A stretch of 63,969 nt of DNA, the filler included, from Sphacelaria rigidula (lineage: Eukaryota): assembly GCA_964200075.2 (NCBI GenBank). It is 11 parts of 11 records of this genome, joined end to end, with 100 filler letters (N's around TTAATTAATTAA, not from the genome) between each part and the next. Parts side by side here need not be neighbours in the genome. Positions count along the whole stretch, not along the records: positions 5,826 to 11,550 come from CAXNAA020024941.1; 10 more parts are not named here. One strand, 5' to 3'. The notes under the pieces were generated by a model. The model did no database searches and had not been told where the DNA came from. It worked only from the letters and a program-made list of their open reading frames with translations. Below are positions 5,726-29,567 of this stretch, in pieces. The position numbers were made by a program, and so were the translations under genes. The first letter of the stretch is position 1; each line of letters opens with the position of its first letter.

Positions 5726-5825
5726 NNNNNNNNNNNNNNNNNNNNNNNNNNNNNNNNNNNNNNNNNNNNTTAATTAATTAANNNNNNNNNNNNNNNNNNN
5801 NNNNNNNNNNNNNNNNNNNNNNNNN
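5726..5825. other. Artificial contig spacer, first of ten; the others are 11551-11650, 17376-17475, 23201-23300, 29026-29125, 34850-34949, 40674-40773, 46498-46597, 52322-52421 and 58146-58245
   Basis: Identical N44-TTAATTAATTAA-N44 blocks with stops in all six frames. The intervening pieces are 5725 bp (five) and then 5724 bp (six), as expected for length-sorted contigs. Confidence 0.98.
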
Positions 5826-6489
5826 AAGAAAAAAATTGCGAAATCGCCTGCAAAGTACAAATCCGCTTGTAGGCTGGCCCAGCCTGTATCATCCGCTGTA
5901 CATATTCCGGGATTTCATAGACTTCAATGTGCACAGTCGCGTCAGGCGAGAGCGTGGAGGCGAGGTTGCCCATCTATTCGTTCACCATGAGGTGAATCTC
6001 ATACGCCGAAGGCGTGAGGTATTTTGGCTTCTCAACCCCAGTATATTAGCCATTTAACGCAGAAGCGCAGATCCTCCGTGCGTGATGCAAGTTGATGGTG
6101 TGGACGCGTCCCAAAATGCCACTCAAGTTCAACCCTTCTCTCGAATATGTCCATGCTAAAGAAATGGTACATGCTAAACTACTACTGTACAAGGAATTGT
6201 TGAGAGGGCGAACCGACCCCTGCGCCCCCCTGCCCGCCCAATAGCATGCAATATGCCGAGTAGACCGGCTCGGCTTTGCTCGCTTGCTATTCTCTCGACC
6301 GGCTCTTACCGCCCGACTGTGCCGCCCAGGTGGCCATCAACCGCAATCCCCGAGCCATGGCCATCGTACAACCAACGTAAAGTAACCCCAACCTAGACGT
6401 TCCTCCTCTCAAGCTAAAACTGATGACAGACCCTCCATCGACGAGCCCCAGCACAAACGCCGCCGTAAAACCAAGTATATTTCATCTCA

Positions 6490-7518
6490 TCACGCGTAGT
6501 AGGCAAGACTTTGCCGATGAGAGCTGACCATACCAACGGCTGTTACAGCGGGAGGGGGGGCACCATAGTTCCTCCTTGCCCCCCGCGGTCCCCATGGCTC
6601 TGTTCGCGAACGCCCCCCCCCACCCCCAAGCGCGCCCCCGTTCACTGCTGCCTCTCGCCTCTCGCCCCCCAATCCTCTACCGCCATTTGGGGCCCCCTCC
6701 TCACCCCTCCGTGGTTCCCCTCTCCCTCCTCCCGCGTCGCCGCTGCTACCGCTACTCCGGGGTTGCGGGTACCCCCCGTTCTGTCGGGGCGCAAATACCA
6801 GCTCTTTGCGGGTGTTCTTTGGATACAAACGCCTTATATTCCGCGTCGACATGACGAGAGCTGACAGGTCGCGGTGTTTTTTGCCGTCTACCGACAGCTG
6901 TCCGTCCGAATCCACGGTAACGAGGACGTTGATCACGCCTGCCTTGTGGCTCTTGTAGTGTATTGCCATCGCCCCGAGCTTGCTCGTGGAGAACCTGATC
7001 AAGAACGTCCCGGGATCCGCTCTTGCAATCACCCGGTTCGCCGTCACCTTTTTCAGGAACCCCGCAAATCCCCGCATCCCGTTCCGCTCTTCCCAGGCCC
7101 CTGTCCGCCGGAGCGTGGCTGTCGCCTGCCAAAACCACTTCCAGAAAGGCTTGAAACTGTCGAGCGTCACTACTACTGCGGACACATCACCACCATACTC
7201 TCCTCTCCGCATAGCAGGCGGCATGCTGCCAGATCCCCATAACCCCTCATCCTCCGCGAACACCGTCAGATCTTCAGAGGATAACGGCCGACTCGAGGCT
7301 CCCGGCACCCTCCTCGCGAAGCATTCTTCAAGCGCCTCGCACAACTCCCCCCACGTCAAGGTGGTCAGTGGCTGTTGAGCTCGGTAGAGACCCGGGCCCA
7401 CGCTAGCCTTGCGAATCACTCGGTCGAAATAGTCCTCCATGGTTTCGACTAGATAGATGGGTCTCCCCGGCGTAGGGGTAGACTGCTGATTCGGGTGATA
7501 GCCATAATTACTCAGGAT
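6490..7518 (-). CDS. Terminal exon of the STAND NTPase-STAT-type SH2 gene: STAT-like linker, SH2 domain, GY tail and Gly/Arg-rich C-terminus
   Basis: Acceptor CCCAATAG|ATCCTG at 7518, open to TGA at 6490. Motifs: W-x2-L-x2-AL-x3-F, RPLSSEDL, FKPFWKWF-x5-LR, GFL, DPGTFLIRFS (SH2 Arg at 6994-6996) and LYPKNTRKELVF...NGGYPQ. Confidence 0.88.
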   Translation of the reverse strand: MLSNYGYHPNQQSTPTPGRPIYLVETMEDYFDRVIRKASVGPGLYRAQQPLTTLTWGELCEALEECFARRVPGASSRPLSSEDLTVFAEDEGLWGSGSMPPAMRRGEYGGDVSAVVVTLDSFKPFWKWFWQATATLRRTGAWEERNGMRGFAGFLKKVTANRVIARADPGTFLIRFSTSKLGAMAIHYKSHKAGVINVLVTVDSDGQLSVDGKKHRDLSALVMSTRNIRRLYPKNTRKELVFAPRQNGGYPQPRSSGSSGDAGGGRGEPRRGEEGAPNGGRGLGGERREAAVNGGALGGGGGRSRTEPWGPRGARRNYGAPPPAVTAVGMVSSHRQSLAYYA

Positions 7519-7770
7519 CTATTGGGTTTTGTGTAGGCGCCATCAGTTTCATTCGGGGAGAGGGAAGGGGCAGGAAAGAACGACGGAGAGGTGGAAGGTC
7601 AAGCTCGAACGCTACAGGCCAGTGAGGTGAACACGCTTCAGGTGAGGTGGGTAAAGTATATCAGCCAGGCACAGAATATCCAGGGCTCCTGGGATCGTTT
7701 CGTAAATAGTACCTTCGAAAAAACACAACCCGGACATAGGGCAACCAAACATATGGGCGCGGCCACCCAC

Positions 7771-8011
7771 CTTAGGGATCTCAACATCAACCCAACGCTC
7801 CCGCTCGAGAAATAAACTACGCTCGGCTTCTCCTACGAGCTTCGAAAAGTCCACCACACAGCCAGGATGTCCTCTCAACGCGCGGATAATGTCGCTCCGC
7901 GAGAAAGCATCCAGGGACTCCGCAAGGTCCGTAGGAGGCATGGGCCTGTTTGGATCAATTTCGATATGATCCAACTTGCGGGGGCAGCACTTCACCAACA
8001 GCTCGGCCGTG
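7771..8011 (-). CDS. Internal exon of the STAND-SH2 gene containing the GxP motif
   Basis: Acceptor GCGCAG|C (phase 2) and donor AAG|GTGGGT (phase 0). Encodes TAELLVKCCPRK...ALRGHPGCV...EIPK; GHP at 7864-7872. Confidence 0.8.
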
Positions 8012-8558
8012 CTGCGCGGCCCGGTTGGTCGAAGCAAAGCAAGAATAAATAAAGCAACAAAAAACAACACAACACCCGATCAATGCTTTCGTTGAAAAGA
8101 AGTGGGGCATGTGATCTAGCGGAATCGACACATGTTCCGTAGCGACAACGGGAAAAAAAAACTATGAATACAATCTACATGACCTATATTGTGCCTCCAT
8201 CAACGCAAAAACAAACGGTAATGAAACGACGAAATCGCACAGGTGCGTACAACTCATCCGCCGGCAAGGGAACACCGCACAGAGAAATGAGAACCTACGG
8301 AACACTCGAACCAGTTGGAGAAATTCCAACTGATTCGGGTGTAGCGTAGGTTCCAGAGAGCTCTCAATACACCACATTCATGCCGAAAACGACGCCTGTC
8401 GGCATGTGAACAACAGCCCGATGTTCGGGCCGAGCACAGGCTCAGTCTCGCTCAAGGACTCCCCTCGAAAACTGCCACAGTAGTAAAAACAAAAACTGCT
8501 GCAACACAAGAAAAAAAGCACCACATTCGCCCCGACGACCGTTAGAAAGCGTACATAC

Positions 8559-8902
8559 CTCTTGTCATTGAGCCCCTCCACAACGACCACCTTTTCCCCC
8601 CTCACCCCAACCACACCCGCGCGTGCCGGGTCCGTGCTCCCACACCTCATCGTTATAGCCGCGGCCAGATCAGGCAGCGCGGCGAACAGCCGCTCCAAAA
8701 GCACGCCCAGCTTCATTCGCTCCTGACCGACCAAGAGATATCGTTCACAGTGGTCCAGCACGAGGAGAGAGCGGTGCGGCGCGAGGGAGCCCCGGCTTTT
8801 CTGGTGCTGTCGTTGGCGCCTTCTGACCAGGTCCGCGATGACCACCATTGCACCGTCAATATTTCGCGCGCCAAGGGACCCCTGCGGCAACGCGAATCCT
8901 TT
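8559..8902 (-). CDS. Internal exon of the STAND-SH2 gene containing Walker B
   Basis: Acceptor AAACAG|AAAGGA (phase 0) and donor AAGAG|GTATGT (phase 2). Encodes LLVLDHCE, AITMR (sensor-1-like) and EKVVVVEGL. Confidence 0.82.
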
Positions 8903-9511
8903 CTGTTTTTTTTCGTTGGAGAGGGGGGGGGGCACGGAACACTGTGAAGAGGGCGCCACACAGAAGCGGTTGTGAAATGGGGTTGGAACGTGAGCGAGGT
9001 GGCGACTTTTTGATGTATTTCTACACATGGGAGCGTGTTGAACACGATGGAGCAAGAGACGTGCTAGTGCATACGTCGAACGCAGGGAGGAACGATCTCA
9101 GGAACCGGGGGAAACGCAGCTGTGACTCGTCTTGAATGGAGGGAGCACGACGCTCCTAGCTTGCAGATAGCCAAAAACAGCATATTTATTTATTTGTCGT
9201 CATAGGCGACGTTCAAAAACATTACGACCCACGGCGTCGATTCTACGCACCGTCAGCAGCAAGGCAGGACCATGGCAGCATCTTTTCTTCTGAGCGTGGT
9301 CGCTAGGGGGCACCACAGGGAAACGTACCCACTTGGCTTGCTTGGTTGATGAGAGGATATGACACTGATGTGGAGGAGAAAACTAGAACACACATGAGTT
9401 TTTTCTATAGACACGTTTCAAGAAAACATTACCGCACGCTCAGGGACCAAAATCCGAACGAGGACGATGGTTGATACCATGTAATTTACGCCATGGGGAA
9501 TGCTTGCTCAC

Positions 9512-9613
9512 CTCCAACCAGCGACAAGCGTCGACGTCCTTGTCCACCCTGCAGAAGAAGATGTCCCCGAAGACGTGTCGCTCTTGCGTGTACGCACACG
9601 CCTTCAGTAATAC
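9512..9613 (-). CDS. Internal 102-bp exon of the STAND-SH2 gene
   Basis: Acceptor CCGCAG|GTA and donor GAG|GTGAGC, both phase 0. Encodes VLLKACAYTQERHVFGDIFFCRVDKDVDACRWLE, fitting the helix and strand that follow Walker A. Confidence 0.8.
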
Positions 9614-10162
9614 CTGCGGATATAGCGCACACGACCGATCAATCCCAACATATCTTTCTTCTTTTCCATTGTTTCTTCTTTGATATCTCATTATAGTCTA
9701 CTCTGTTGGTCCGTTTCACCTTTGGCTGTTTTCTATGCATTATTCTCCAGCGATTGTTTCAGTTTTTTTGTTTCGGGTACGTGCATCATGTGGATGATGA
9801 CCACGACTGGATCACGACTACCTAGGGGATCATCAAGAGGGCGACAATCAATCAATCGATTCATACGAGAGTTTGCAACACAGGCAAGATTCGTTCATGG
9901 GTGGCGCCGGTGAAACCGTTGCCAACATCAGCAGCCAAACACGGAATAAAACACGAGGGATCGAAAGAGCACAACAAACGACAAAACCCACCCCCGTCAT
10001 CGCAAACAGCTTCCAATAACTTCTTGTGGGCATGCTCATGAACCACCCTCCTGCTGTAGTCTCGACCTCTACCGTCACATATCCCATCAGACGGCTTTCA
10101 CATACACAACCCGCCACCATACGGACCGAACCATTCTGCCAGCATGATAAGCTACCATGTAC

Positions 10163-10388
10163 CTGAGTCTTCCCGATGCCCTGATGCCCGACAATGGTGA
10201 TGCAGCGCCTCTTGTCTACCATGTGCCGCACCACCTCCTGAACTTCCACAGCCCGCCCCCGGAAATGCTCCGTGACCTTGTCGCACGGATACAGCGGCTG
10301 AGGGGAGGTCAAGATCTCGAAGCTCCCCATGTGGACCTCCTCGATGGGGATGTCATGATTGCCGCCGTCCTCCTTCGTGGGCAAGAGG
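10163..10388 (-). CDS. First visible exon of the STAND-SH2 gene containing Walker A; the gene is 5'-incomplete
   Basis: Acceptor TGTACAG|C and donor CAG|GTACAT. Encodes LLPTKEDGGNHDIPI...HFRGRAVEV...ITIVGHQGIGKTQ, i.e. the FxGR motif and GxxGxGKT. Confidence 0.85.
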
Positions 10389-10549
10389 CTGTACAGGTTG
10401 TTTTTTCGGCACAGGAAAGTAAAAAACCATATTAAAGATTAAGCAAAAGCTGAAAACGCAGCAGCACACACCGAAAAAAAAGTGAACAGGCACAGACACT
10501 GGCGACAGAATAGAACACAAGTGTTCCATGAAAAAGTAATACGTGTATA

Positions 10550-11550
10550 CAGTGGGGTGCTCTCAATAGTGCCGGTTGAATAGTGCCAACGACCTTTATA
10601 ATGCCGGTAAAATCTCCGGAGAGAGCCAGAGCTCGCAGTAGTGCCGCCCGGCACTACTGACAGATGACCCTCACTAGTGCTGGTTTGAACGGTTTTGTAC
10701 CCTCAACAGTGCCGGTTCCGGGCACACTCACGCACGCCTTACCCCCCACCAACCAAGCACCAGTAGGGGTACAGCAGGGTACGAGTGGTGCAGACTTTGC
10801 AACATAGGGACACAACATGGCTTGTGCGGGGAAGGTAAACTGTGCCTGGTGCAGGCCATGACGCCAGAGGCCGTCATGGCCACGGTTGCCAGGGGATATG
10901 TGGCGGGAGGCTCCACGGTATTTGCGGCAGCATGTTTGGCGACAACGAAATGCACCGCATCTGCAGCAAGTGCCTTCAAAAAAAGGGCAAGCGCACAAAG
11001 GTTTCATCCGAGAGTGCTGGGTCGGGGCAGTCTACAAGCAAAGGCGCGAAAACAGAGTGGTAGAGGCCATGCGAACGGACGCGGCGGAGGAACTCACGGC
11101 CCTCTTGGATGGGACAGCCAATGGTAGGGACTCGGAGGAGGAGCAAGAGGAGCAAGAGGAGGATGACGACGAGAGCACGGGGAGCGGGAATGGTGCCCCA
11201 CCGCCCTACGGTGAACTCTCGTCTCACTTCGGCATCCTGGAGAGGGCAGCACAGGACAGTGGGAATGCAAACGCAGCCTTGCACCTGTCCAAAGCAAGGA
11301 TGGAGATGATTGCAGCGTATGCCAACAAGCGAACGCGCCAAGCAGACTTGAGAAAGTTTTTGCCGACGGAACGAGGAGGGAGATGCGGGGGCTAATGCAA
11401 GTCATGGGTGGTTTCTTTGGTGGTTGCTTCACTGATGTTGTTTTCTATCGGGTAGCCCGTAGCATCTACGCCCGAGCACAGCCACGGGAGGAGTCGTGTC
11501 TAGTTTGCTGCATCGGTGTGTTTTTTTTCGAGGTCGTTTGTTTCTCTCTC
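10550..11550 (+). mobile_element. Pogo/Tigger-like (Tc1/mariner superfamily) transposon remnant, internally deleted, probably intronic
   Basis: Starts TA|CAGTGGGGTGCTCTC with repeated subterminal (AAT)AGTGCC motifs. The ORF fragment has an acidic tract and ends KRTRQADLRKFL, a PIP-box-like motif. No DDE core is visible and the right end is cut by the contig. Confidence 0.55.
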
Positions 11551-14276
11551 NNNNNNNNNNNNNNNNNNNNNNNNNNNNNNNNNNNNNNNNNNNNTTAATT
11601 AATTAANNNNNNNNNNNNNNNNNNNNNNNNNNNNNNNNNNNNNNNNNNNNTCCCTGCAATGGAGGGATGGGACTTCAACCTCATATTATGTTTCAACCCC
11701 AAAAATTAGGATCGGCTGTTATCTGGTTGGATCCGGTTCTTTCGGAGGACCGACCCAATCGAGTGCACCCTGGTGTCCACTTCTTTTCGGAAGTGCGAAG
11801 TCTCGACACCACCAATGAGAGAAAGAGAAAAGAAATCGGCCTTCATCTGTGACCAAGCATATCGTGACGTTCGTCCTGTGTCATTCTACGTTGGACTTAC
11901 CCACATGCTGTGAGCTCACGATTGTTTCAAGAGTAACGGTGAGACAGTAAGGTGTTTGATTCCAGCAGCGAGCAGATGCTAGAAGGTTGGCATGATCGTA
12001 AAATCGAACTGTGCCAAATGGAGTGGTGAAATGTGTAACCATATATAATAGTAAAAGTAAGTCATATTTGCATGAGCTAGCAAAACCTCGTAACCTGCAT
12101 AACCGAAATACTATTGTTGTTCGCTCTAGTTCTCGACTTGTACAGTAGAGACACGCATGTGGACGACCACTATGGCCAACACTTTTTCGTTTGTATCAGT
12201 ATGTGCGAATACCGAACTTTTTTTCCATATTTTTTGTTTGTTTTTCTGCGTGATTTATTGACAATTTTGTTCCGATAAAACTGTTCTGAAGTGTTCTGTC
12301 GCCAGTAACTCACGGAGAAAAACAAAAAACACACGGGAGGAACAAAGGGGTGTTTGCACATACGTCCTGTACATCATGTCAAAACTTCATCGAGCACGAC
12401 CAGCTATTGAGCTCGGGAACTATGCTACAGCTTGTGCGGCACCACGCGGCACAAAGCTGACTGTAACCGAAAATCCAATCTCTGCCGTTTTCTTCTGGCT
12501 ATTCCGCCGCACACAGTACCCTCAACTCTATACACTTTCGCACTTGACTACATTTTGGTATTTAGTTTGATGATACCTTGTCGGATCGCAGTGCTACACG
12601 GATTTGAAGACGCGCGCTGATTTGCCGATTACCACAATGTGTCATAGGCACAACTCGCGGTACATCGCCACTTAGAACGGGTTGAAGGAAAGTGAGCTTC
12701 TTAGGCGGCCCAGCCTGTAAAATCCCGTGTTAATCGCTGAAATACTCACCAGCAAGCTCCACTCTAGTGCACTGTAAGTTGATATCGGTAGAAGGACATT
12801 ACCACAGCCACCTTGCCGGCTGCCAGGACGTAGGATCCACTAGCATTGCTGTCTGTACGGGGATGTTGCCTCCTTCTCGGGTACGTGGGGAACGGTCCGT
12901 GGCAGAACACAATGGTCGCATCAAGCAGCTGCACCAAATGTTGGGCGTTCTCACTCAACACTTCGATTTGAAGGATGATACTAGGTAGGCAGCAGCAACT
13001 GCTGTGTGTCTAGGTGCCCCTTGGAGCAAGATGCGTTTGGTTTCTGTTTGACAAAGTTTCCCCCCAGAAACCGAAATCAATAGGGGTTTTAGAGACCCAG
13101 AAAAAAAAAACTCGCAAAAATTTAGTCGCGAAAATCGAGTCGCAAAGAACCGGTGTGTCAAATTTTTACCTGGAGCAGAAACCATTTTCACTTCGTGAAA
13201 TTGGAACAAGTGGACATTTGACCTAGAGCAACACATCAATGAGCGCTGACTGGTTCAAAAGTCAGAAGTTCGCTCCTTGAACACGCTGAACCCTTACTGC
13301 GGCTCTGTTGCTGAATGCACACGGAATGTTATCTGTGCACATCAAGTGCACGAAACATGCGGTGCATTTTCAAAAACAGGCCAAAATAATCAAGACGAGG
13401 CGTCACTGTTTTCCAGAGGTTCACTCACACTCACACCATAGCGTCCCGAGACTGGGAAATACATCGGCACTGTTACCTGCATCCTGGGGGGTATGTAGAG
13501 ACTGCTTCGCTCGTCTGGATCTGCTTTGTGTATGGCGACAAACCGTTAGGTGACTAAAGTTAGGACTTATGCAGGTACTCATTTCTCATCCGTGCGGAAA
13601 GGAAGCATCACGAGCACGTCTCTTTCTAGAGCACTCTTGAGCAAACCCTGGCGTTGCTCTCTTAGTACATAAACACAAGAGATAGCCGAGAGTACTCAAC
13701 AACGCAGCACTCATTGCACATTACAACTCTTCGCAACATGTATTATTAATACGGTTAATCGTGCTCGACATCTCACACTGTACTTGTACACCCGAAAAAT
13801 TGTGCGTCCCTATCTGGGTTGTACACACCAAAGCTAAAACATACGCAGAAAAACATATAACCAGTACTTCCACGCGACATCACAAATACCTCTTGCCCCG
13901 ACGACATCGGTCGAGCGCGATTTAATCACCACTCTACCCGCAAGCAAAACTCTGTACACTACATGGGAGTACAAAACGACATAATGTGCCGTGCTGTGGG
14001 GCCCCTCCCTCGATCTTGCGCAACAGACTTAACCCTTCCGAGTGCACTCGCCGTGTGTGCCTCGAACCCCGGGCAACAGAGAACGTGCTTTTATTACACA
14101 AATGAATGCGCTCAACTGCATGTGTTTTGCGCCTTCAGCATACGGACAAAAACGTGCAGCGCGCTGTGGAGCAAAACTGCTGAAGAATGACCAAGTTTCC
14201 AATGCAACGCTTTCCGAAGAGAGCTATACCGAGAAGGCCAGCAAACTGTACAACATTACACGAAAAGCCTCTCTTG

Positions 14277-15194
14277 TCACCTGATGATTTGAAACCGGAT
14301 ATATAGGTACATTCGAGTGGCCCACGACACCATGAGCAGTTGCATGCAGCTCATGGCCGCCCAATGGAAGATATGGTCCCTGTTCTGGAGAAAGGTAACC
14401 GCAGGCCGAATCCGCTCCCCTACCCACGGCCCCAATGTGTTGCTGTCGGCGAAGCTATACACACCCAGGCCAAACGACACCAGCGCTCCTGGGAGCACGA
14501 AGTACTTGGAGTACGTCGGAATCTGTATCAGGGCAACACCGGCCGCCCCCCCGATCCCCCATCCGACGAACAAAACGCACCACCTCATTCGCTCGCGGTC
14601 CAACTCTGCGCGGAAGATTTCAGCGATGACCAGCGACACTAGGCCCACGCAAAAGCACACCAGCGCAATTACGGCCGAAGAAACCAATAACATATCGCCC
14701 CTGTAGTCGTCGCTGTCACCCTCCGCCACCACAATACCCGTCAGGGCAAACCCGAGCAAGATGCTACAGAAGTGCCACACAGCCAACGCCGCGGCAAACA
14801 CAGGTCTTCGTGCAGCCAATCTAGCGAGATGAGAAATGCCGTGTCGGGATGTTGTACCACCTCGGTCGCCACCATCACCTCCATCACTGCTGTTCATCGT
14901 TCCAAGTACAAGTGGATCACCACTACTTCTACGCTTCCATACCAAGGCATTGAGCACGAGAGCCAGTACCGTCACAGTCCCAGGGGTGAGCGCGAAGACA
15001 AAGTACGGTGGAAACAAGTACAGCAAGCCGACGCCAGCCTCGTTGTCGAGGAACGATGGCGATACCGACTCAGGGTTGCCGACGTACAGCACTCCCACTA
15101 TCGCCAGCCATAAGCTTATGCCCATAGTTTCCAGCGCCCAGAAAAGGCGCCATCTCTGCCTTGTAGTCCGCAGAAAGTGCATCATTTTCTCGTC
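14277..15194 (-). CDS. Large exon of an uncharacterised multi-pass membrane protein
   Basis: Acceptor TTGTACAG|GAC at 15194; about 305 open codons with roughly 7 hydrophobic segments. The 3' end is ambiguous: TGA at 14277 or donor AG|GTGACA at 14281. Confidence 0.72.
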   Translation of the reverse strand, partial: DEKMMHFLRTTRQRWRLFWALETMGISLWLAIVGVLYVGNPESVSPSFLDNEAGVGLLYLFPPYFVFALTPGTVTVLALVLNALVWKRRSSGDPLVLGTMNSSDGGDGGDRGGTTSRHGISHLARLAARRPVFAAALAVWHFCSILLGFALTGIVVAEGDSDDYRGDMLLVSSAVIALVCFCVGLVSLVIAEIFRAELDRERMRWCVLFVGWGIGGAAGVALIQIPTYSKYFVLPGALVSFGLGVYSFADSNTLGPWVGERIRPAVTFLQNRDHIFHWAAMSCMQLLMVSWATRMYLYIRFQIIR

Positions 15195-15864
15195 CTGTAC
15201 AACACGACACGGGTACAGGGAGCACAACACTCAACGATCAGACAACAGAAGACACAACACCATGTCGGCTGCGCGGAAACGCTACTCTCCTTCCCCGCCC
15301 CTTACAAACGGGCATCGTATCGCGTATCATTTCATCATCAAAGTGGTGATATTTCATTTTCTTGTCTCAATTCTCATCCCTCCTCTTCCTCGGGACGAGC
15401 GCGTAGACTCAATGGATCGATCAGCACACCTCTTCATGCCCCCCACTACGAAAGTGATTCGTTGTCAATGGTGAAACGACATAGGCAACCAACAAATGAG
15501 TACGCCCTTACATTTGGCATCGCGGGATGGATCATGGCTACGCATCTCCGCACCGTGCCGACTTTCGTCAAATAAATTTCGGTGGCTATACGGCATCGAT
15601 TACGCTCACCTCAACCCAAATCTCTGCTCCTTCATGGGTGCCATGATATACCCATTACAGACATCCACGACCCCTCCGAAGGTTGTTACGATTAATACGG
15701 GCTGCAGCATCAAGAGTCTGTTTGGACGTTCGATACCTTGCACTGGGTGGGGCTCTCGTGCGGCGCGCGCGGGGGGAAAGGGGTAATTCGACCATGTCCG
15801 GTGTGTTCCTGCATCAAACCGCTACCAATAAGGAAAAGCACCTGCGCAGCGGTCCGGTACTCAC

Positions 15865-16167: not shown

Positions 16168-19100
16168 CTGAGGAAGAAATTGCGTTGTTGAAACAGAAAA
16201 CCGTCGAAACTTGCCGTGTCAGTGCATAAATACGAACGGAAGGTGTCGGGTTAACCGGTGATGGAAAATGAAAGAGACGCCATCTCCGAAAAATAACTTT
16301 TTTTTTTGTTTTCCCTCATTTCAATGAAATATGTGCGGGGGCGAGAGAAAAGAAGCGGAGGGAGTTTGATCCCGTGGGGAGCCCCGTCATGTGCCTTTAT
16401 GCCTCCATCACGCTTGCAGCAAGTGCTGGCTCATGCACTGTGGGAGAGACCTTAAAAGTGCCCCTTTTCCCGACGGAAACGAGCTAGGATTCGTTGTCCG
16501 ACGTCAACTCGCCGTGGAGTTCTTTTCTTCATCACGGGGCATGCGTGAATGTTTCAGGCAGAGCGTGCGGCTCGTGGTGTGCAGCATTTCCCACGGAAGA
16601 GCGCCGTGCGCTGAGCCGGACAACAGACGAATCATATCCCTGGTTCAAGACAACCGTGTGCCCACACAACGCTAGCTTGAACAGCGTTTTCTCATACGCA
16701 GGTGCGCTTATGAATCTTGATTTCTCACCAATAGTATCAGCCACCCTGACACCACGTCTGTAGCGGTCAGGTTTTCATCCGACCCCGGAGTCTTCACACC
16801 ACACGCCCACAGGTATACCGAGTCGGGAATATAGCTCGATAGCATGTCCTCCACGACTCTCGAGTCATCACTGCGTATATTGCTCCATGCTGAGTGATCA
16901 GCACCTGATCATTTATGACGAGGACGGCGGGACGGTGGGGACGGGGGGGAAGGAGGGCCTTCCGATATGGCACCGCGGCTTGGACCATAACTATCAGCAG
17001 CCCCCCCCACAGCGTCGACACTGGCCGAACCCATTCTTCCAACTACCCACGCTCTCAGGTTTTGATCGACGGGAATCGAATACCCCTCGGGAAAAATCCC
17101 AAACGCATCTGTCGGGAATGAAACCCAACATTTTCCCGACATGATGGTGTCAGTTGTACTGTACTGGACCACTGGAGCACCAGGGCGCGGCGATACTGCA
17201 GAATGAACACATATCTGCATGCACCTCGAGACCAAAGCACAAGCGGCACACTTCTCGGCAAGTCTGGGTAGTGTTGTGCGTACCATACGTCCCGATACAC
17301 CCCCATCCATCCCCCCACACGTGCTCCGTCTCGAAAGGGATGCGTGGTCAATGGTCAAATGACTAAGGCAAGCAANNNNNNNNNNNNNNNNNNNNNNNNN
17401 NNNNNNNNNNNNNNNNNNNTTAATTAATTAANNNNNNNNNNNNNNNNNNNNNNNNNNNNNNNNNNNNNNNNNNNNTGGGGCTGGCACTAGCGCGTTTGCC
17501 TCGTTCGATGCCCACTGGTATTCCGGGAGGCGCGTGTTGTACGTGTACGTCAAGACGGATCTACAAGTAGTGGCCAGGGATAGATTGAGAGAACCTAGTG
17601 GGAACTTGCCGAGCGACGACTCCGGTCTCAGCTCCGCCTTCCTGCGCACCCTTGCGCACGTGGAAGGACGTCACTCGGACTAGAACGATATTATTATATT
17701 ATTATTATATCTATCACATTAGCTCGATCTCTCGAACCCGTGGTCAATGTCTGGAATTTGCGTGGTGCGATGCGCGAAATAATTGTCATCGTCAATCTAT
17801 GGCCCTTACTTTCTTTCCGTCCCTTGTTCTGCTTGTATGCCGTTCTTGCTTTTCTTGATTGAGGGCGTCTGTCTCTTCTGTCCCTTTTCCATTTCATTCC
17901 TATGTGAGAAAGGATGGGGACATTGGAAGTGTGATGCGAAGCACAGCGATCTATTACAAGTTTTCGTTGCAGCACAGCATCATGACGTCAGCATGGTCAT
18001 CTTGACCAAATTCCTATCAATAATAGAAGAGACCTACTGTCACGTATCCGTTCTCGTCACGTTCACGTGTGCAACAAGTACATGAGATGGATCCAGGGGG
18101 GGGGTGACGCAGCCTCTAGCAAATGCCTGGAAGCTTGCTGAAATAGCATGCCCTTTGCCATGGTCATTCAAACTCATTCGTGCTTATCGAAGCACATTCT
18201 TCTAGGATTATAAAATTGATTGCAAACTTAAAGTGTGTACCGCTTCATGTGACGTGTTCATGACGTTTCATGTAACGTGTAACGTCTAATACATGTGAAA
18301 CGGCTAATATGTTACACGTGTATTATAGACGGTACACGTTCCATGAAACGTTGTTTCATGTTACGTGTTTTGAGCGTTCGGACAGTTTAACGTTCACGTT
18401 ATACTTTTCGTGTGACACATGAAGCAAATAACGTTACGTTAACGTTACATGCAAACAATTATGGGTTACGTTACGTTACATTCATCATGTTGTAAACGAG
18501 TAAGATTTACGTTACGTTTCGACCAAAACGTAACGTGTAACGCTGTGGCAAGTGTAACGTAAAGAGGTTTGATTTTTCTTATGATGAGCCTTGGGCACAT
18601 TTTTGTATGCAGCAAGATGTTGAAAAAACAAATCACACCTTGGACAACACACTACATTGCCAAGCAGTTTACTGCGCACAGTATCGAGTGTTGTGTCTAC
18701 TGCAATAGACAATATATGCAACACTGTACACAAATGCACTCTCCGGACGTGGTGTGTGGTTTCGCTCACCCTACAAAAAAAATCCATCCACACTTTGAAA
18801 GTTCCAGTGTGAAATGGATACGTGATACATGTTATGTGATAGGGATTCCAGCTGCTGAGTTGTTTCTGGATACAGACTGGCGGGTACGATAAGTATAAAC
18901 ATCGAATTTTAATATTCGGGGTTGATCTCCAAAATGAGGTTCAAGTGGCATATCTTTTTGCAGGGAGGGCGCGAATCAGTTACACAGAGCGAAACCATAT
19001 CTCCCCCCAAATGTCTGCAGCACTTAGGCAGTTGTGGCTAAGTGCACCGAACGAATGCAGTGTACACGCGTGTCGGTGACGATATTACCAGAGAGAGAAG

Positions 19101-20532: not shown

Positions 20533-23200
20533 TTGGGGAGAATGGCAGATCAGGGTGGTAGGCCTGCTACATTTGTCGGTGAGCAGGGTGTTATTGAGCA
20601 ATTGCGGGAGGTGAATAACCAGATGAGTTCCATGGCTCAGCTACTGCGTGATTTGCAGTTAAACCGAGCTGCTTTACAGAGTAACATGGACGATATCAGG
20701 GCAGTAAGGGACGCCGGGGGCGCAGAAACCAGTGGCGTCCTCCGTAGTGATGGTTCCCATAGTCAACAGGGGGAATCCAACATGAACAGAACAGTGGAGC
20801 GACATGGTGCCGGAGTTTGAAGAGATCGACGGTATATCGGGAGTCAAGCTGTTCCAGAGGAAGGAGCGCGCGACGCAGAGGACAACGACGCCACAAATGA
20901 CGGAGCTAGGGACTTTGTCCCTGCGCGTGAGTCAATGCTAGTAAACGATGCAAGTGGAAATATGTCAGGGTTTCCTGTTTTTCGACAGAATGTCCCAAAC
21001 TTTTCAGGGAAGAACGCTGATTATGCTCGGTACAGACATGAGCTGGTTAACTTCGTGAGGGGCGAAGGAATTGCCTGGGTGTTTACCATAGCCGGCGATA
21101 GTTCGCACAACGTAGATGTCGGCGGCCCTGAATTAGCACGAGGGTATCTGGAAAGTAGACACGGGAAGGACACAGTGGCAACCCACGTGAGGGTGAGACG
21201 GATGCTTGTTGCCAGTTTAGAAGGAAAGAGGGAGCAAGATATTTTGCTCAGAGTCCACTCACTTGGTGCGGTTTGGAGAAAACTCGAGGATGTCTTTCGC
21301 CCCAAAACAAATGGGGCTTTGTTGGAAAAGTTCGATGGAGTCAAGAGTGGTGTTCGTGATGATCCAGAGCAGAAGCTGCTCAAGATGGAGGAAATTGCAC
21401 GGGACCTGAACTCATACGAGGAACATCAACTACTAAGCGAAAACCACATCCTTTTCAAATACCTCAACGCATTGCCTTTCGAGTATCACATTCAAAAGCA
21501 GTTGCTGGAGGATCGAGAGAGGCCGCTGACACGGGAGGTTGTGCTGACCTCGGTCCGAAAGCGCTTCTAATCGACCGCTTTGAGGCAGGAACTTGCCCGG
21601 GGAAAGAAGTTATCCCCGGGCGACCAGAGTCTCCTTGCCAGGGGTGGGACCGAAAAACCGAGCGGTGCACACCGCAAGGGAAAACCGGGAAAACCCCAGG
21701 GCTCTGGTCAGGAAAACGGCGGGAGCTAGAGTTCTAGTAGCTCTGGGTCGGCATCGTCGGACGGCAAACCGGCGACGGTGAAGCTGCTCCGCTGCCACGT
21801 TTGCGACGAGGACACGACGCATCCAGCCAGGATCTGCCCGAAGAGATACTGCGGGAGGTGCGGTCAGCAGAGGCACACGTTCTGGGACTGTCCGAGCTCG
21901 ACAGTGGAGAAAGAAGACGTGGCGATGGCGATGGGCGCGGCCGACGACAGCGACAGCTCTTCCGCTTGTTCGGTGGCGGACGGGGAGGCTTTCATCTCTT
22001 TCGACACCACCATCAATGGCGACACAGGCGAGTATGCATTGAGTGTTGGGCGAGGGGGTGATAGTCAGCAGGGTGAGGGCGAACCGTGGGTATTCGACAC
22101 GGGGGCTACCCAGCACTTTTCCCACGATTCCCATGGGATGACGGAGTACAGAGAGTGCAAGGGTAGGCTACCACGGTGCGCGGGTGGTGGTACTCACCCG
22201 ATCGTAGGTGGAGGAAATTTGTCTCTTGCCTTCAGATCTGACGGACAAGATGTGATGCTCAAATTAATGAATGTTGACCATGTACCTGATGTCCGTCATC
22301 ACTTCTTGCCACTCACGAGGATCCAAAACATGGGACACACCTACACTGGTTCTCGTGCGGGTTTCAGGGTAGATCTCATTTCAGGCAATACACTGAAAAC
22401 ACCCGGACAACCAAGTCAACTGAAAATGTACGCCCGCCGCCTCGACCAAAGTGGTGGTGACAAGTGTACTTCGGCATATGCTGTTTTTGCCCCCGGGGGT
22501 TCCGCCTAGCCCCCAGATCGCTGACATGGACGAATTCCACTGTGCCCACGCCCACGTCCACGAGGACCTACTGCGAAAGACGGCGAAGCTGCAGGGAAAG
22601 CAGCTGGCTGGGGAGCTGCAGCCTTGCCGCGGCTGCTCAGAGGCGAAGGGACTGCAACGGCCGATTCCAAGATCGACGCACACGAGAGCAGCTAAGTCAG
22701 CGTCTAGGGTGTTTGTAGGTCTTTCCGGCCCGAAACCAGTCAAGTCTTACGGGGGAAAGTCGTACACGATGATAGTCCGAGATGATCACTCACGGCACAC
22801 AAAGTTGTACTTCCTCCGGAAGAAGGATGCGGCAGAAAGATACTTCGCGAAATACATTGCATGGGTCTCTCCGAGAAAAATTGAGATAGTCCGTAGCGAT
22901 GACGGGGGTGAATTCTCGGAGGGTGCATTTGGTGAACTGTGCGACAGGGAAAAGATCAATCAGGAGAAGACAACTGCCGACTCACCCCAGTTCAACGGTG
23001 TTGCAGAGCGAGCGTTGGGTATCATCGAAGCAATAGGCCTTGCGGCCAAGATCTAAGCATCTGAGCTGTACCCAGATGAGCGCATCCCAAATGGTGACAA
23101 CCTGTGGGCTGAACAGGCAAACTGAGCGTGTTACGCCCTGAAGTGCACCGCTACCTCGGCTAACCCGAACCACAAATCACCGCATGAGATGTGGTATGGA
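20533..23200 (+). mobile_element. Degenerate Ty1/Copia LTR retrotransposon (gag-protease-integrase; RT lies beyond the contig end)
   Basis: Gag-like ORF 20935-21570; zinc knuckles CHVC...H...C and CGRCGQQRHTFWDC; protease WVFDTGATQH; HCAHAH...CRGC; integrase IVRSDDGGEF and SPQFNGVAER. Integrase follows protease directly (Copia order). Several stops and frameshifts; the first catalytic Asp reads Gly (VFVGLSGP). Confidence 0.92.
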
Positions 23201-28553: not shown

Positions 28554-29567
28554 ACCCCCAATCCCCCCCGCCAACCCACACCACACAACCCAAAAAAACC
28601 CNNNNNNNNNNTTTTTCATCCCCCTTTGCCCGCCCCCCGTAAGCAGTGCCCCCCCCCCCCCCCCCCCCCCCCTCCCTCTTGATGGTTAGTGTCGACTGAC
28701 AACGATGCTGTAAGACACGCCACTCATCTGTAAACTAGGCAACCAGGATACCGTTTTTTGTTTTCTCGCTTGTGTTTTTTTGCGGTAACCATGATGGTGG
28801 TCAAGCTAGATCATTTTGTACGGAGTGGGAGAACCTCAACTCCGCACAATGGGGATGATCGTACAACGTCGTGTCTTACGTGGTGTGACAGACACCCATG
28901 AGGCAGCGGGTATAACCCGTGACTGTCTCTGGAAGTGGCGATACCAGAAAATAAAGCAGCTCATTGTAGACTGCCATCCAAATGCAAGATAATCAGTGGG
29001 CTTCGGGCCGAACAATCTTAGCAGGNNNNNNNNNNNNNNNNNNNNNNNNNNNNNNNNNNNNNNNNNNNNTTAATTAATTAANNNNNNNNNNNNNNNNNNN
29101 NNNNNNNNNNNNNNNNNNNNNNNNNCAATGGCCGACCAAACTACTGTAGTTTTATTCTCCGTCCCCCCCGATGCTGGCTTATGGTGTTTTGTGCTACAGC
29201 CCCCCCCCCCCCCCATGATCATGAGTACACCCCCCCCCCCCGCGCCAACAACAACAGGTGGTGAGAAATTCAGGCTTAAATACACAAACTGCGATCATGA
29301 GGAGATCGACGCAAGATGGGGATAGTAGGCTCAAATTGTAATCCCCCACACTGCTAATAGTGGCTCATCGCTACAGCACGTACGTACATGTTGCAGACTG
29401 AAATGAAAAATAGGTTAACGTGGTCCAAAACTACGGTAAGAAGCCACGACTTGAGGGCATGAGCTTGATTCTCGGCTGGTCGGGACTGCACTACCACACA
29501 GAAAAATATGATATCACGCAAAATTTCATTGGCCGAAGCAAAAGCAATGGAAGCTCCGTCCCAGTTT

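Follow-up and report, generated by a model that had tools for sequence, protein, structure and literature searches.

We analysed a stretch of DNA of 63,969 nucleotides from Sphacelaria rigidula (assembly GCA_964200075.2), hereafter the window, which encodes on its minus strand an SH2 domain resembling those of STAT transcription factors. The exon that carries it, 6490..7518, is the terminal exon of a multi-exon STAND nucleoside triphosphatase (NTPase) gene, and the segment 7069..7359 together with the SH2 domain forms a STAT-type linker-SH2 module rather than a Src-type domain. The encoded protein belongs, as a divergent member, to an uncharacterised family of CHAT-STAND-linker-SH2 proteins, in which the SH2 domain may act as the sensor of a switch like those of Apaf-1 and the NLRs. 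The window is made of 11 equal pieces of ~5725 bases joined by N44-TTAATTAATTAA-N44 spacers (5726-5825, 11551-11650, 17376-17475 and onwards every ~5825 bases), and neighbouring pieces need not be contiguous in the genome; the gene lies in piece 2 (5826-11550).

The SH2 module is of the STAT type

From its 5′ end, exon 6490..7518 encodes a short spacer, a STAT-type linker, the SH2 domain, a post-SH2 LYP..K..F segment and a Gly/Arg-rich tail ending in HRQSLAYYA. The original prediction, made from the sequence alone, had claimed a complete STAT-like signature at this site, and every string that it quoted is present in the translation, which contains TWGELCEALEECF, RPLSSEDL, FKPFWKWFWQATATLR, GFL, DPGTFLIRFS and LYPKNTRKELVFAPRQNGGYPQ. 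Counted from its first ATG, the minus strand from 7440 to 6490 is an open reading frame (ORF) of 316 residues, with the frame remaining open upstream as far as 7518. Within this ORF the SH2 domain is far beyond chance, with a Pfam score of 26.7 bits against a gathering cutoff of 21; the match to Pfam STAT_linker is weak and below its cutoff (E 0.17, 12.7 bits versus 27). The STAT consensus strings given in the prediction are broadly matched by STAT5A and by the STAT sequences P0043, P0049 and P0053.

Searches of the PDB by sequence place the module with the STATs. With phmmer the eight top places go to STAT5A/5B, Dictyostelium STATa and STAT6, aligned over both the linker and the SH2 domain. 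A profile of 12 family sequences returned STATs for all of its 21 top matches (E 4.6e-12 to 2e-6), led by STAT5A at E 4.6e-12, in which profile positions 38-239 align with STAT5A residues 365-549, including the post-SH2 element ‘hP..PK..vF’. SHP2 and ABL trail behind the STATs in this search, with E from 1e-5 and the SH2 core alone aligned. Structural comparison was made with an AlphaFold2 (AF2) model of the 256 residues encoded by 6751-7518, built from a 28-row alignment (predicted local distance difference test, pLDDT, 85.2; predicted template modelling score, pTM, 0.81). Foldseek ranks 1-40 are occupied by STATs only, with the first Src-type SH2 protein appearing at rank 41. Likewise, ranks 1-30 of a VIA-align search are all STATs, with Z of 13.7-17.9 over 183-214 residues (model residues 24-247), whereas Src-type SH2 domains follow from rank 31 on with Z of at most 13.2 and ~88 residues each. 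Model helices 27-139 superpose on the linkers of the STATs. The prediction that the SH2 domain would group with the STAT type and not the Src type is therefore borne out by Foldseek, VIA-align and the family-profile search, in all of which STATs rank first.

The closest parallels are metazoan STAT5 and STAT6 (PDB 7tva and 4y5u) and Dictyostelium STATa (1uur), in which the linker and SH2 domain also form one unit and which match at Z 17-18 over 189-214 residues with 20-24% identity. The elements W..LCEAL, R.L...[DN]L, FW.WF, GTFL.RFS and the post-SH2 hP..PK..vF are common to the window module and the STATs. SH2 domains of the STAT type are defined as being without strands βE and βF and as having a split helix αB (PMC12470777). 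According to DSSP on the predicted structure, βD in the AF2 model is followed by two strands of three residues each (208-210 and 213-215) and by short helices at 218-224 and 237-241, which is compatible with a split αB.

The resemblance does not extend to the rest of the protein. Neither STAT_bind nor STAT_alpha from Pfam was matched in any of the 70 ORFs of the window, and the spliced upstream exons encode an NTPase, in agreement with the prediction that no STAT DNA-binding domain is present. Unlike the STATs, the window protein is without the coiled-coil, DNA-binding and N-terminal STAT domains and has a P-loop NTPase upstream instead, and its family is without a conserved tail tyrosine. Tests for the DNA-binding domain, the coiled-coil and the conserved tail tyrosine were all negative, and by architecture this is no STAT transcription factor. 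Linker-SH2 modules outside the STAT transcription factors occur in plants and yeast and have been proposed as the ancestral form of SH2 (Gao et al. 2004, as cited in the accessible portion of PMC3670131). These ‘STAT-type linker-SH2’ proteins, compared here by description only, resemble the window protein in carrying the module outside a STAT, and none is described in that portion as an NTPase fusion. In the ESM Atlas the best feature match of the window SH2 part is a plant-dominated SH2 cluster (0.86), which we treat as a lead only.

The SH2 exon closes a multi-exon NTPase gene

Evidence for splicing comes from contigs of runs X1, X2 and X3, which belong to one study and, like X4, are labelled ‘RNA?’ by guess. 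Four joints, all GT..AG on the minus strand (CT..AC on the plus strand), are found in contigs of X1, X2 and X3. Run X5, which is DNA-like and follows the window DNA colinearly over 5861-9813 and 9785-10588, has none of them. One joint was placed by the contig at 9610/10160 (skipping 9611-10159), and an equally good cut three bases to the right, 9614-10162, gives GT..AG with an identical joined sequence. When exons 10388-10163, 9613-9512, 8902-8559, 8011-7771 and 7518-6490 are put together, they give a single open frame of 646 codons. The spliced contigs that link these five exons make the SH2 module physically part of the NTPase gene, as had been claimed. Contig cover in the RNA-like runs is absent from ~6645-6803, the region of the G-rich tail that includes the candidate tyrosine codon discussed below. 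We also weighed, and discarded, a pseudogene or transposon-captured fragment: the reading frame runs unbroken through all 646 codons, the splice sites are canonical, and the product is 85% conserved with the relative P0108, including the tail.

The transcript continues beyond the first exon of the window. Record 12 of X3 is 2787 nucleotides long, of which 1168 lie 5′ of 10388. The 30-nucleotide loose end directly 5′ of 10388 gave no match in the window with up to three mismatches permitted, and for this reason we place the upstream exons outside it.

The upstream exons carry the motifs of a STAND NTPase. Walker A (GHQGIGKT), Walker B (LLVLD) and GHPG align with the Walker A, Walker B and GxP columns of the family, and the window GHPG coincides with GGHP in 13/13 relatives of the family alignment. 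A hidden Markov model (HMM) built from 10 CHAT-STAND-SH2 proteins matches exactly the five window exon ORFs, in colinear order (Table 1), and nothing else among 1735 ORFs. In a phmmer comparison residues 12-509 of the spliced product align as a single stretch with residues 230-725 of P0019. The GxP exon and the SH2 domain also occur in one chain in P0011, the N-terminal part of which is matched by exon 7771..8011. Only some relatives pass the Pfam NTPase cutoffs, among them P0033 (nSTAND1, 45.3 bits versus 27.1) and P0027 (AAA_16, 35.8 versus 32.6; NACHT, 28.2 versus 26.7).

P0027 is the Saprolegnia diclina protein SDRG_08366. In its AF2 model (pLDDT 71.7) the N-terminus matches the SAVED-CHAT protease 8tl0 (6e-9), and the middle part matches plant NLR resistosomes (NRC/ZAR1 chains), Apaf-1 (3sfz, 2.8e-6) and the NB-ARC of NRC. 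A P-loop, Walker B and GxP helical module are shared with the NB-ARC of Apaf-1 and plant NLRs, as is the layout of effector, NTPase and sensor. In Apaf-1 and the NLRs, however, the sensor is a WD40 or LRR domain and the effector a CARD, CC or TIR domain, whereas here the sensor position is held by SH2 and the effector position, in the relatives, by a CHAT protease. The window NTPase region is also short by comparison, its P-loop and the linker being ~280 residues apart. Motifs, colinearity with the family and the fold of a relative place the window protein in the broad STAND class, although the curated profile scores do not.

A family of CHAT-STAND-linker-SH2 proteins

HMMER, run exhaustively with the linker-SH2 part as the query, yielded 106 representatives at E ≤1e-3, of which 11 are close (E ≤1e-23). 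The next tier of matches consists of proteins of 660-1009 residues with Pfam CHAT, AAA_16/NACHT/nSTAND1, sometimes STAT_linker, and SH2. These long relatives were missed by a word-index search for longer homologues with the SH2 part as the query, which returned none at E ≤1e-3. The clade of the window protein comprises P0108, P0001-P0011 and P0109-P0113; P0108 is 85% identical to it, P0001 53-59% and the others 34-49%. A search with the linker-SH2 of P0027 returned 25 long proteins of 486-994 residues, and all 24 of those with source names are from oomycetes. The oomycete genera with long members are Saprolegnia, Achlya, Thraustotheca, Aphanomyces, Lagenidium, Phytophthora, Globisporangium and Peronospora, and the database labels of these proteins are hypothetical, ‘SH2 domain-containing’ or ‘CHAT domain’ protein. 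Their NTPase, GxP and linker-SH2 parts are colinear with the window protein, with F.GR, Walker A, Walker B, GHP, RPLS, FW.WF, GTFL.RFS and YP..PK in common, although they are only 22-27% identical to its SH2 part.

One visible clue bears on the N-terminus of the window protein. The 30-nucleotide loose end translates to ..ENRKF, which when joined to the LLP.. of the next exon reproduces the KF.LLP motif found at the end of the CHAT region in relatives, and the 1168 nucleotides of 5′ transcript are approximately the right length for a CHAT region. The unseen 5′ exons probably encode an N-terminal CHAT protease, as in the relatives. The CHAT fold at the N-terminus of these relatives is also that of the bacterial CHAT-STAND and SAVED-CHAT conflict-system proteases, and clusters combining CHAT with AAA_16 or NB-ARC in the ESM Atlas are bacterial. 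None of the bacterial CHAT/AAA_16 clusters listed for P0027 carries SH2, and in this analysis the fusion of SH2 to CHAT-STAND was found in eukaryotic proteins only.

Among the more distant matches, P0013, P0016, P0017, P0022 and P0023 (339-560 residues) have two SH2 domains alongside a Cbl-type EF-hand-like domain (Cbl_N2), and represent another use of an EF-hand-like-plus-SH2 unit outside the STATs. The SH2 query also matched, at E<1e-5, two bacterial-looking repeat proteins, P0012 and P0036 (SprB repeats with a Por secretion tail; FliK-like/Calx-beta). As short repeated stretches alone match, these are most likely low-complexity false positives.

A conserved phosphate pocket and a sensor model

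In SH2 domains the FLVR arginine (βB5) binds phosphate (PMC7530234). This residue had been predicted to be intact in the window, and it is, with AGG at 6996-6994. It is invariant in the close-family alignments, and in a set of 28 sequences reaching down to 22% identity its conservation is at least 90%, P0057 having a lysine in its place; the serine of RFS and the lysine of GF..K are kept as in STATs. This pattern of conservation indicates that the residues of the SH2 pocket are under selection.

In the STAND class, which includes Apaf-1, the NLRs and bacterial STAND defence proteins, a C-terminal domain senses a ligand, the NTPase oligomerises and an N-terminal effector is activated. The C-terminal position is normally taken by a ligand-sensing WD40, LRR or TPR domain. 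The relatives of the window protein have the order CHAT (effector), NTPase, SH2, and because this order matches that of Apaf-1, NLRs and bacterial STAND proteins we read the SH2 domain as a sensor or recruitment domain. By analogy, it would act in trans on a ligand that is phosphorylated, the simplest candidate being a phosphotyrosine motif of a different protein. Ligand binding would then recruit the NTPase or free it from autoinhibition, and nucleotide-dependent oligomerisation would gather the N-terminal effector domains as in the activation of an apoptosome or resistosome. A ligand within the tail cannot be general, because most long members end 4-15 residues after the SH2 domain, and for this reason the ligand is placed in trans. 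We put the probability that the SH2 domain is the sensor of such an NLR/Apaf-1-like switch, binding a phospho-ligand in trans and thereby switching the NTPase, at roughly 0.55.

Several points weigh against this sensor model. The mechanism rests on analogy with Apaf-1 and the NLRs: beyond the conservation of the pocket we infer what kind of ligand is bound, that the protein oligomerises, that the window gene has CHAT and in what order the events occur, and the ligand, phosphorylation, oligomer and protease activity are all putative. SH2 domains can also bind phosphoserine/phosphothreonine or unphosphorylated peptides (PMC7530234). No CHAT-like ORF was detected in the window with the family HMM, the 5′ exons lying outside it and 30 nucleotides of upstream transcript being visible. 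The window NTPase exon ORF is below the Pfam cutoffs, with 16 bits for nSTAND3 versus 27.2 (E 0.01) and 13.9 for AAA_16 versus 32.6 (E 0.079). Furthermore, Walker B is followed by His-Cys-Glu in the window as opposed to Gly-Cys in the family, making NTPase competence uncertain, and the transcript status of runs X1-X4 (‘RNA?’) is a guess.

Tyrosine kinases are rare outside animals, a circumstance that would suit a linker-SH2 that served as a phosphorylation-independent structural or adaptor domain, for example by docking on the NTPase or on a fixed partner, with its pocket kept for historical reasons. The lysine that replaces the FLVR arginine in P0057 is in keeping with such a role, as is the small complement in P. 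infestans, for which two putative tyrosine kinases and only four SH2 proteins are given in PMC3019232. However, the FLVR arginine, the serine of RFS and the lysine of GF..K are conserved at 22-27% identity, which argues for selection on the phosphate pocket, and we regard a phosphorylation-independent role as improbable.

The C-terminal tail and the candidate tyrosine

The tail is long and Gly/Arg-rich with an R-R-x-S motif in the window clade, whereas the oomycete proteins are without such a tail. Near the C-terminus R-R-x-S is found in the window protein (as HRQS), P0108, P0002, P0003, P0005, P0007, P0110, P0111 and the long form P0033, with RRQSMPPM, RRRSMP, RRQSFP and RRQSLV as the versions of relatives. 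At least eight close relatives have R-R/H-x-[ST]-aromatic directly after the SH2 domain, while the window protein (QNGGY) and P0108 (QHGGH) do not. A penultimate tyrosine (..YA) is common to the window protein, P0108 and P0001. Both R-R-x-S and R-x-[ST]-aromatic look like sites of the Ser/Thr-kinase or 14-3-3 type.

The recurrence of these motifs, in the window clade and P0033 in the one case and in the close relatives in the other, is what would be expected if the SH2 domain read its own Ser/Thr-phosphorylated tail, with autoinhibition in cis or assembly in trans as the outcome. There is a precedent in the N-SH2 domain of Spt6, in which the FLVR arginine engages a phosphothreonine next to a tyrosine (pThr-x-Tyr; PMC7530234). 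Nevertheless, such a reading is distinctly improbable: the oomycete long forms are tailless, the window protein and P0108 have no [ST]-aromatic motif, and the kinase sites are putative, with the basic serine motif fitting 14-3-3 binding or plain regulation equally well.

The original prediction had singled out the tyrosine at 6769-6771 as a candidate activation tyrosine, proposing a reciprocal pairing of the STAT-dimer kind, in which the phosphorylated residue is bound by the SH2 domain of its partner molecule and which could drive assembly of the NTPase. The residue follows Gly-Gly in a disordered tail just past the SH2 domain (pLDDT is below 50 from model residue 247 on), and the pocket residues are intact. 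Moreover, the last VIA-aligned residue of the model (~246-248) corresponds to STAT5a residue 687, which presumably puts Tyr 250 a few residues before the STAT5a phosphosite. The tyrosine lies eight residues past the phenylalanine of LYP..K..VF, a spacing that is probably shorter than in most solved STATs, and this counts against the pairing.

The tyrosine is not conserved in orthologues, an outcome that the prediction itself had named as refuting it. In the close-family alignments its column has tyrosine only in the window protein and P0005. It has histidine in the 85%-identical P0108, in a tail that is otherwise conserved between the two proteins, phenylalanine in P0001, tryptophan in P0002, P0003, P0007, P0110 and P0111, and methionine in P0006, P0112 and P0113. 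Any tyrosine within 30 residues after the LYP..K motif is present in 4/18 close-family sequences (the window protein, P0005, P0007 and P0010). Among the 32 long CHAT-STAND-SH2 proteins examined, the motif was located by pattern in 28, two of which have such a tyrosine (P0030 and P0039); of the remaining four, three end 3-6 residues past a variant motif and one is an incomplete sequence. Most of the oomycete long forms stop 4-15 residues past the motif and have no tail. Because the tyrosine column varies and most long forms are tailless, the family does not conserve reciprocal pairing through a tail tyrosine as a mechanism. The GGY tyrosine, specific to its lineage and placed in a disordered tail, stands outside the conserved mechanism, and its phosphorylation as the trigger of NTPase assembly is very unlikely; a STAT-like dimer formed through it is barely possible as a private feature of the window gene alone.

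Finally, that the 316-residue ORF is a free-standing linker-SH2 protein with NTPase exons nearby by coincidence is hardly credible: it has a start codon at 7440 and a 316-residue collection entry predicted by automatic gene calling (P0107) with close relatives of 205-351 residues, but three runs splice 7518 to 7771 and on to the Walker A exon in frame, the frame is open above the ATG to exactly the acceptor at 7518, P0011 joins the GxP exon and SH2, and short entries are expected from single-exon ORF calling on intron-containing DNA. Because the five exons are spliced into one frame, we take P0107 to be a single-exon ORF call and the ATG at 7440 to be internal.

Features of the gene and its surroundings

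The coordinates of the gene are collected in Table 1. Just upstream of the Walker A exon is a high-copy repeat (10400-11550), over which the word depth of X5 ranges from hundreds to ~17,000, compared with ~70 over the gene. The repeat has many variant letters and several odd joints, and one X1 contig contains 1481 extra letters at 11055/11057. In the other pieces, ORFs of a copia-like retroelement at 21730-23053 (+) match Pol_BBD (E 3.3e-10) and then the integrase core rve (E 2.8e-6, below the Pfam cutoff), and a gypsy-like retroelement occupies 46626-50711 (+), with RVT_1, RT_RNaseH and Integrase_H2C2 in ORFs 48658-49311 and 49065-50711. Ahead of the latter is a 492-residue ORF (46626-48101) with no Pfam match, possibly gag. 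The window DNA is eukaryotic. An open frame of 317 residues at 14280-15230 (-) has many hydrophobic stretches and is membrane-protein-like, with no Pfam family. Two further runs of 10 N are located at 28602 and 39535.

Table 1 Features of the STAND-linker-SH2 gene in window coordinates, in the direction of transcription; HMM positions refer to the family profile
Feature	Position	Strand	Details
Exon with F.GR.. and Walker A	10163..10388	-	GHQGIGKT 10166-10189; HMM positions 196-287; 5′ end is a splice acceptor
Intron, 549 nucleotides	9614..10162	-	GT..AG with the cut shifted by 3
Small exon, helix after the P-loop	9512..9613	-	..LLKACAYTQERHVFGDIFF..; HMM positions 273-304
Intron, 609 nucleotides	8903..9511	-	GT..AG
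Exon with Walker B, sensor-1-like ..ITMR.. and GEKVVVVEGL strand	8559..8902	-	LLVLD 8753-8767; HMM positions 342-438
Intron, 547 nucleotides	8012..8558	-	GT..AG
Exon, helical ‘GxP’ part of the NTPase	7771..8011	-	..AFSRSDIIRALRGHPGCV..; GHPG 7861-7872; HMM positions 427-505
Intron, 252 nucleotides	7519..7770	-	GT..AG; joint 7518/7771 in X1, X2 and X3
Last coding exon	6490..7518	-	342 codons plus stop (6490-6492); open frame, acceptor 7518; HMM positions 612-801
STAT-type linker, helical, EF-hand-like	7069..7359	-	WGELCEAL, RPLSSEDL, FWKWFWQA..TLR; aligned to STAT5A residues 365-460
SH2 domain, Pfam PF00017 envelope	6850..7068	-	E 5.8e-6; residues 125-197 of the 316-residue ORF
FLVR (βB5) arginine of SH2, in GTFLIRFS	6994..6996	-	Codon AGG
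Candidate tyrosine (GGY)	6769..6771	-	Codon TAC; Tyr 224 of the 316-residue ORF, Tyr 250 of the AF2 model
C-terminal HRQSLAYYA and stop	6490..6519	-	Window version of the basic R-R-x-S motif
Probable 3′ untranslated region	5861..6489	-	X1-X3 contigs colinear over 5861-6621/6645

Discussion

The sensors known from STAND/NLR switches are LRR, WD40, TPR and similar domains. SH2 domains are the readers of kinase pathways, and their STAT-type form is the dimerisation device of transcription factors. A STAT-type linker-SH2 as the sensor of a STAND protein, with CHAT in front of it in the relatives, would unite two signalling logics that are rarely found in one chain. The family is already present, unnamed, in public databases, and the novelty lies in its recognition and in the mechanism proposed and not in the discovery of the sequences. 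Among the open papers searched, we found none that describes the CHAT-STAND-SH2 architecture or names both ‘CHAT domain’ and ‘SH2 domain’; an earlier listing would most likely be in Liu et al. 2011 or Liu and Nash 2012. In the accessible portion of Kaur et al. 2021, the sole mention of SH2 concerns metazoan TRADD-N proteins, where it is the C-terminal domain.

Taken to its full extent, the sensor model would make the protein a phospho-gated, apoptosome-like protease, in which the STAT-type SH2 domain senses a mark set by a kinase and, through the STAND NTPase, switches on a CHAT caspase-like effector, the mark being phosphotyrosine or a phosphoserine/phosphothreonine-aromatic surrogate as in Spt6. 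We consider this complete chain unlikely. If it were true, phospho-signalling in stramenopile-like protists would feed straight into proteolytic or cell-death signalling, and the STAT linker-SH2 would be an old portable module of signalling NTPases outside animals and amoebae, independent of DNA binding. The family occurs in lineages with very few tyrosine kinases and SH2 proteins, such as P. infestans (PMC3019232), and it offers a handle on what SH2 domains read outside animals and on whether the linker-SH2 module predated the STATs.

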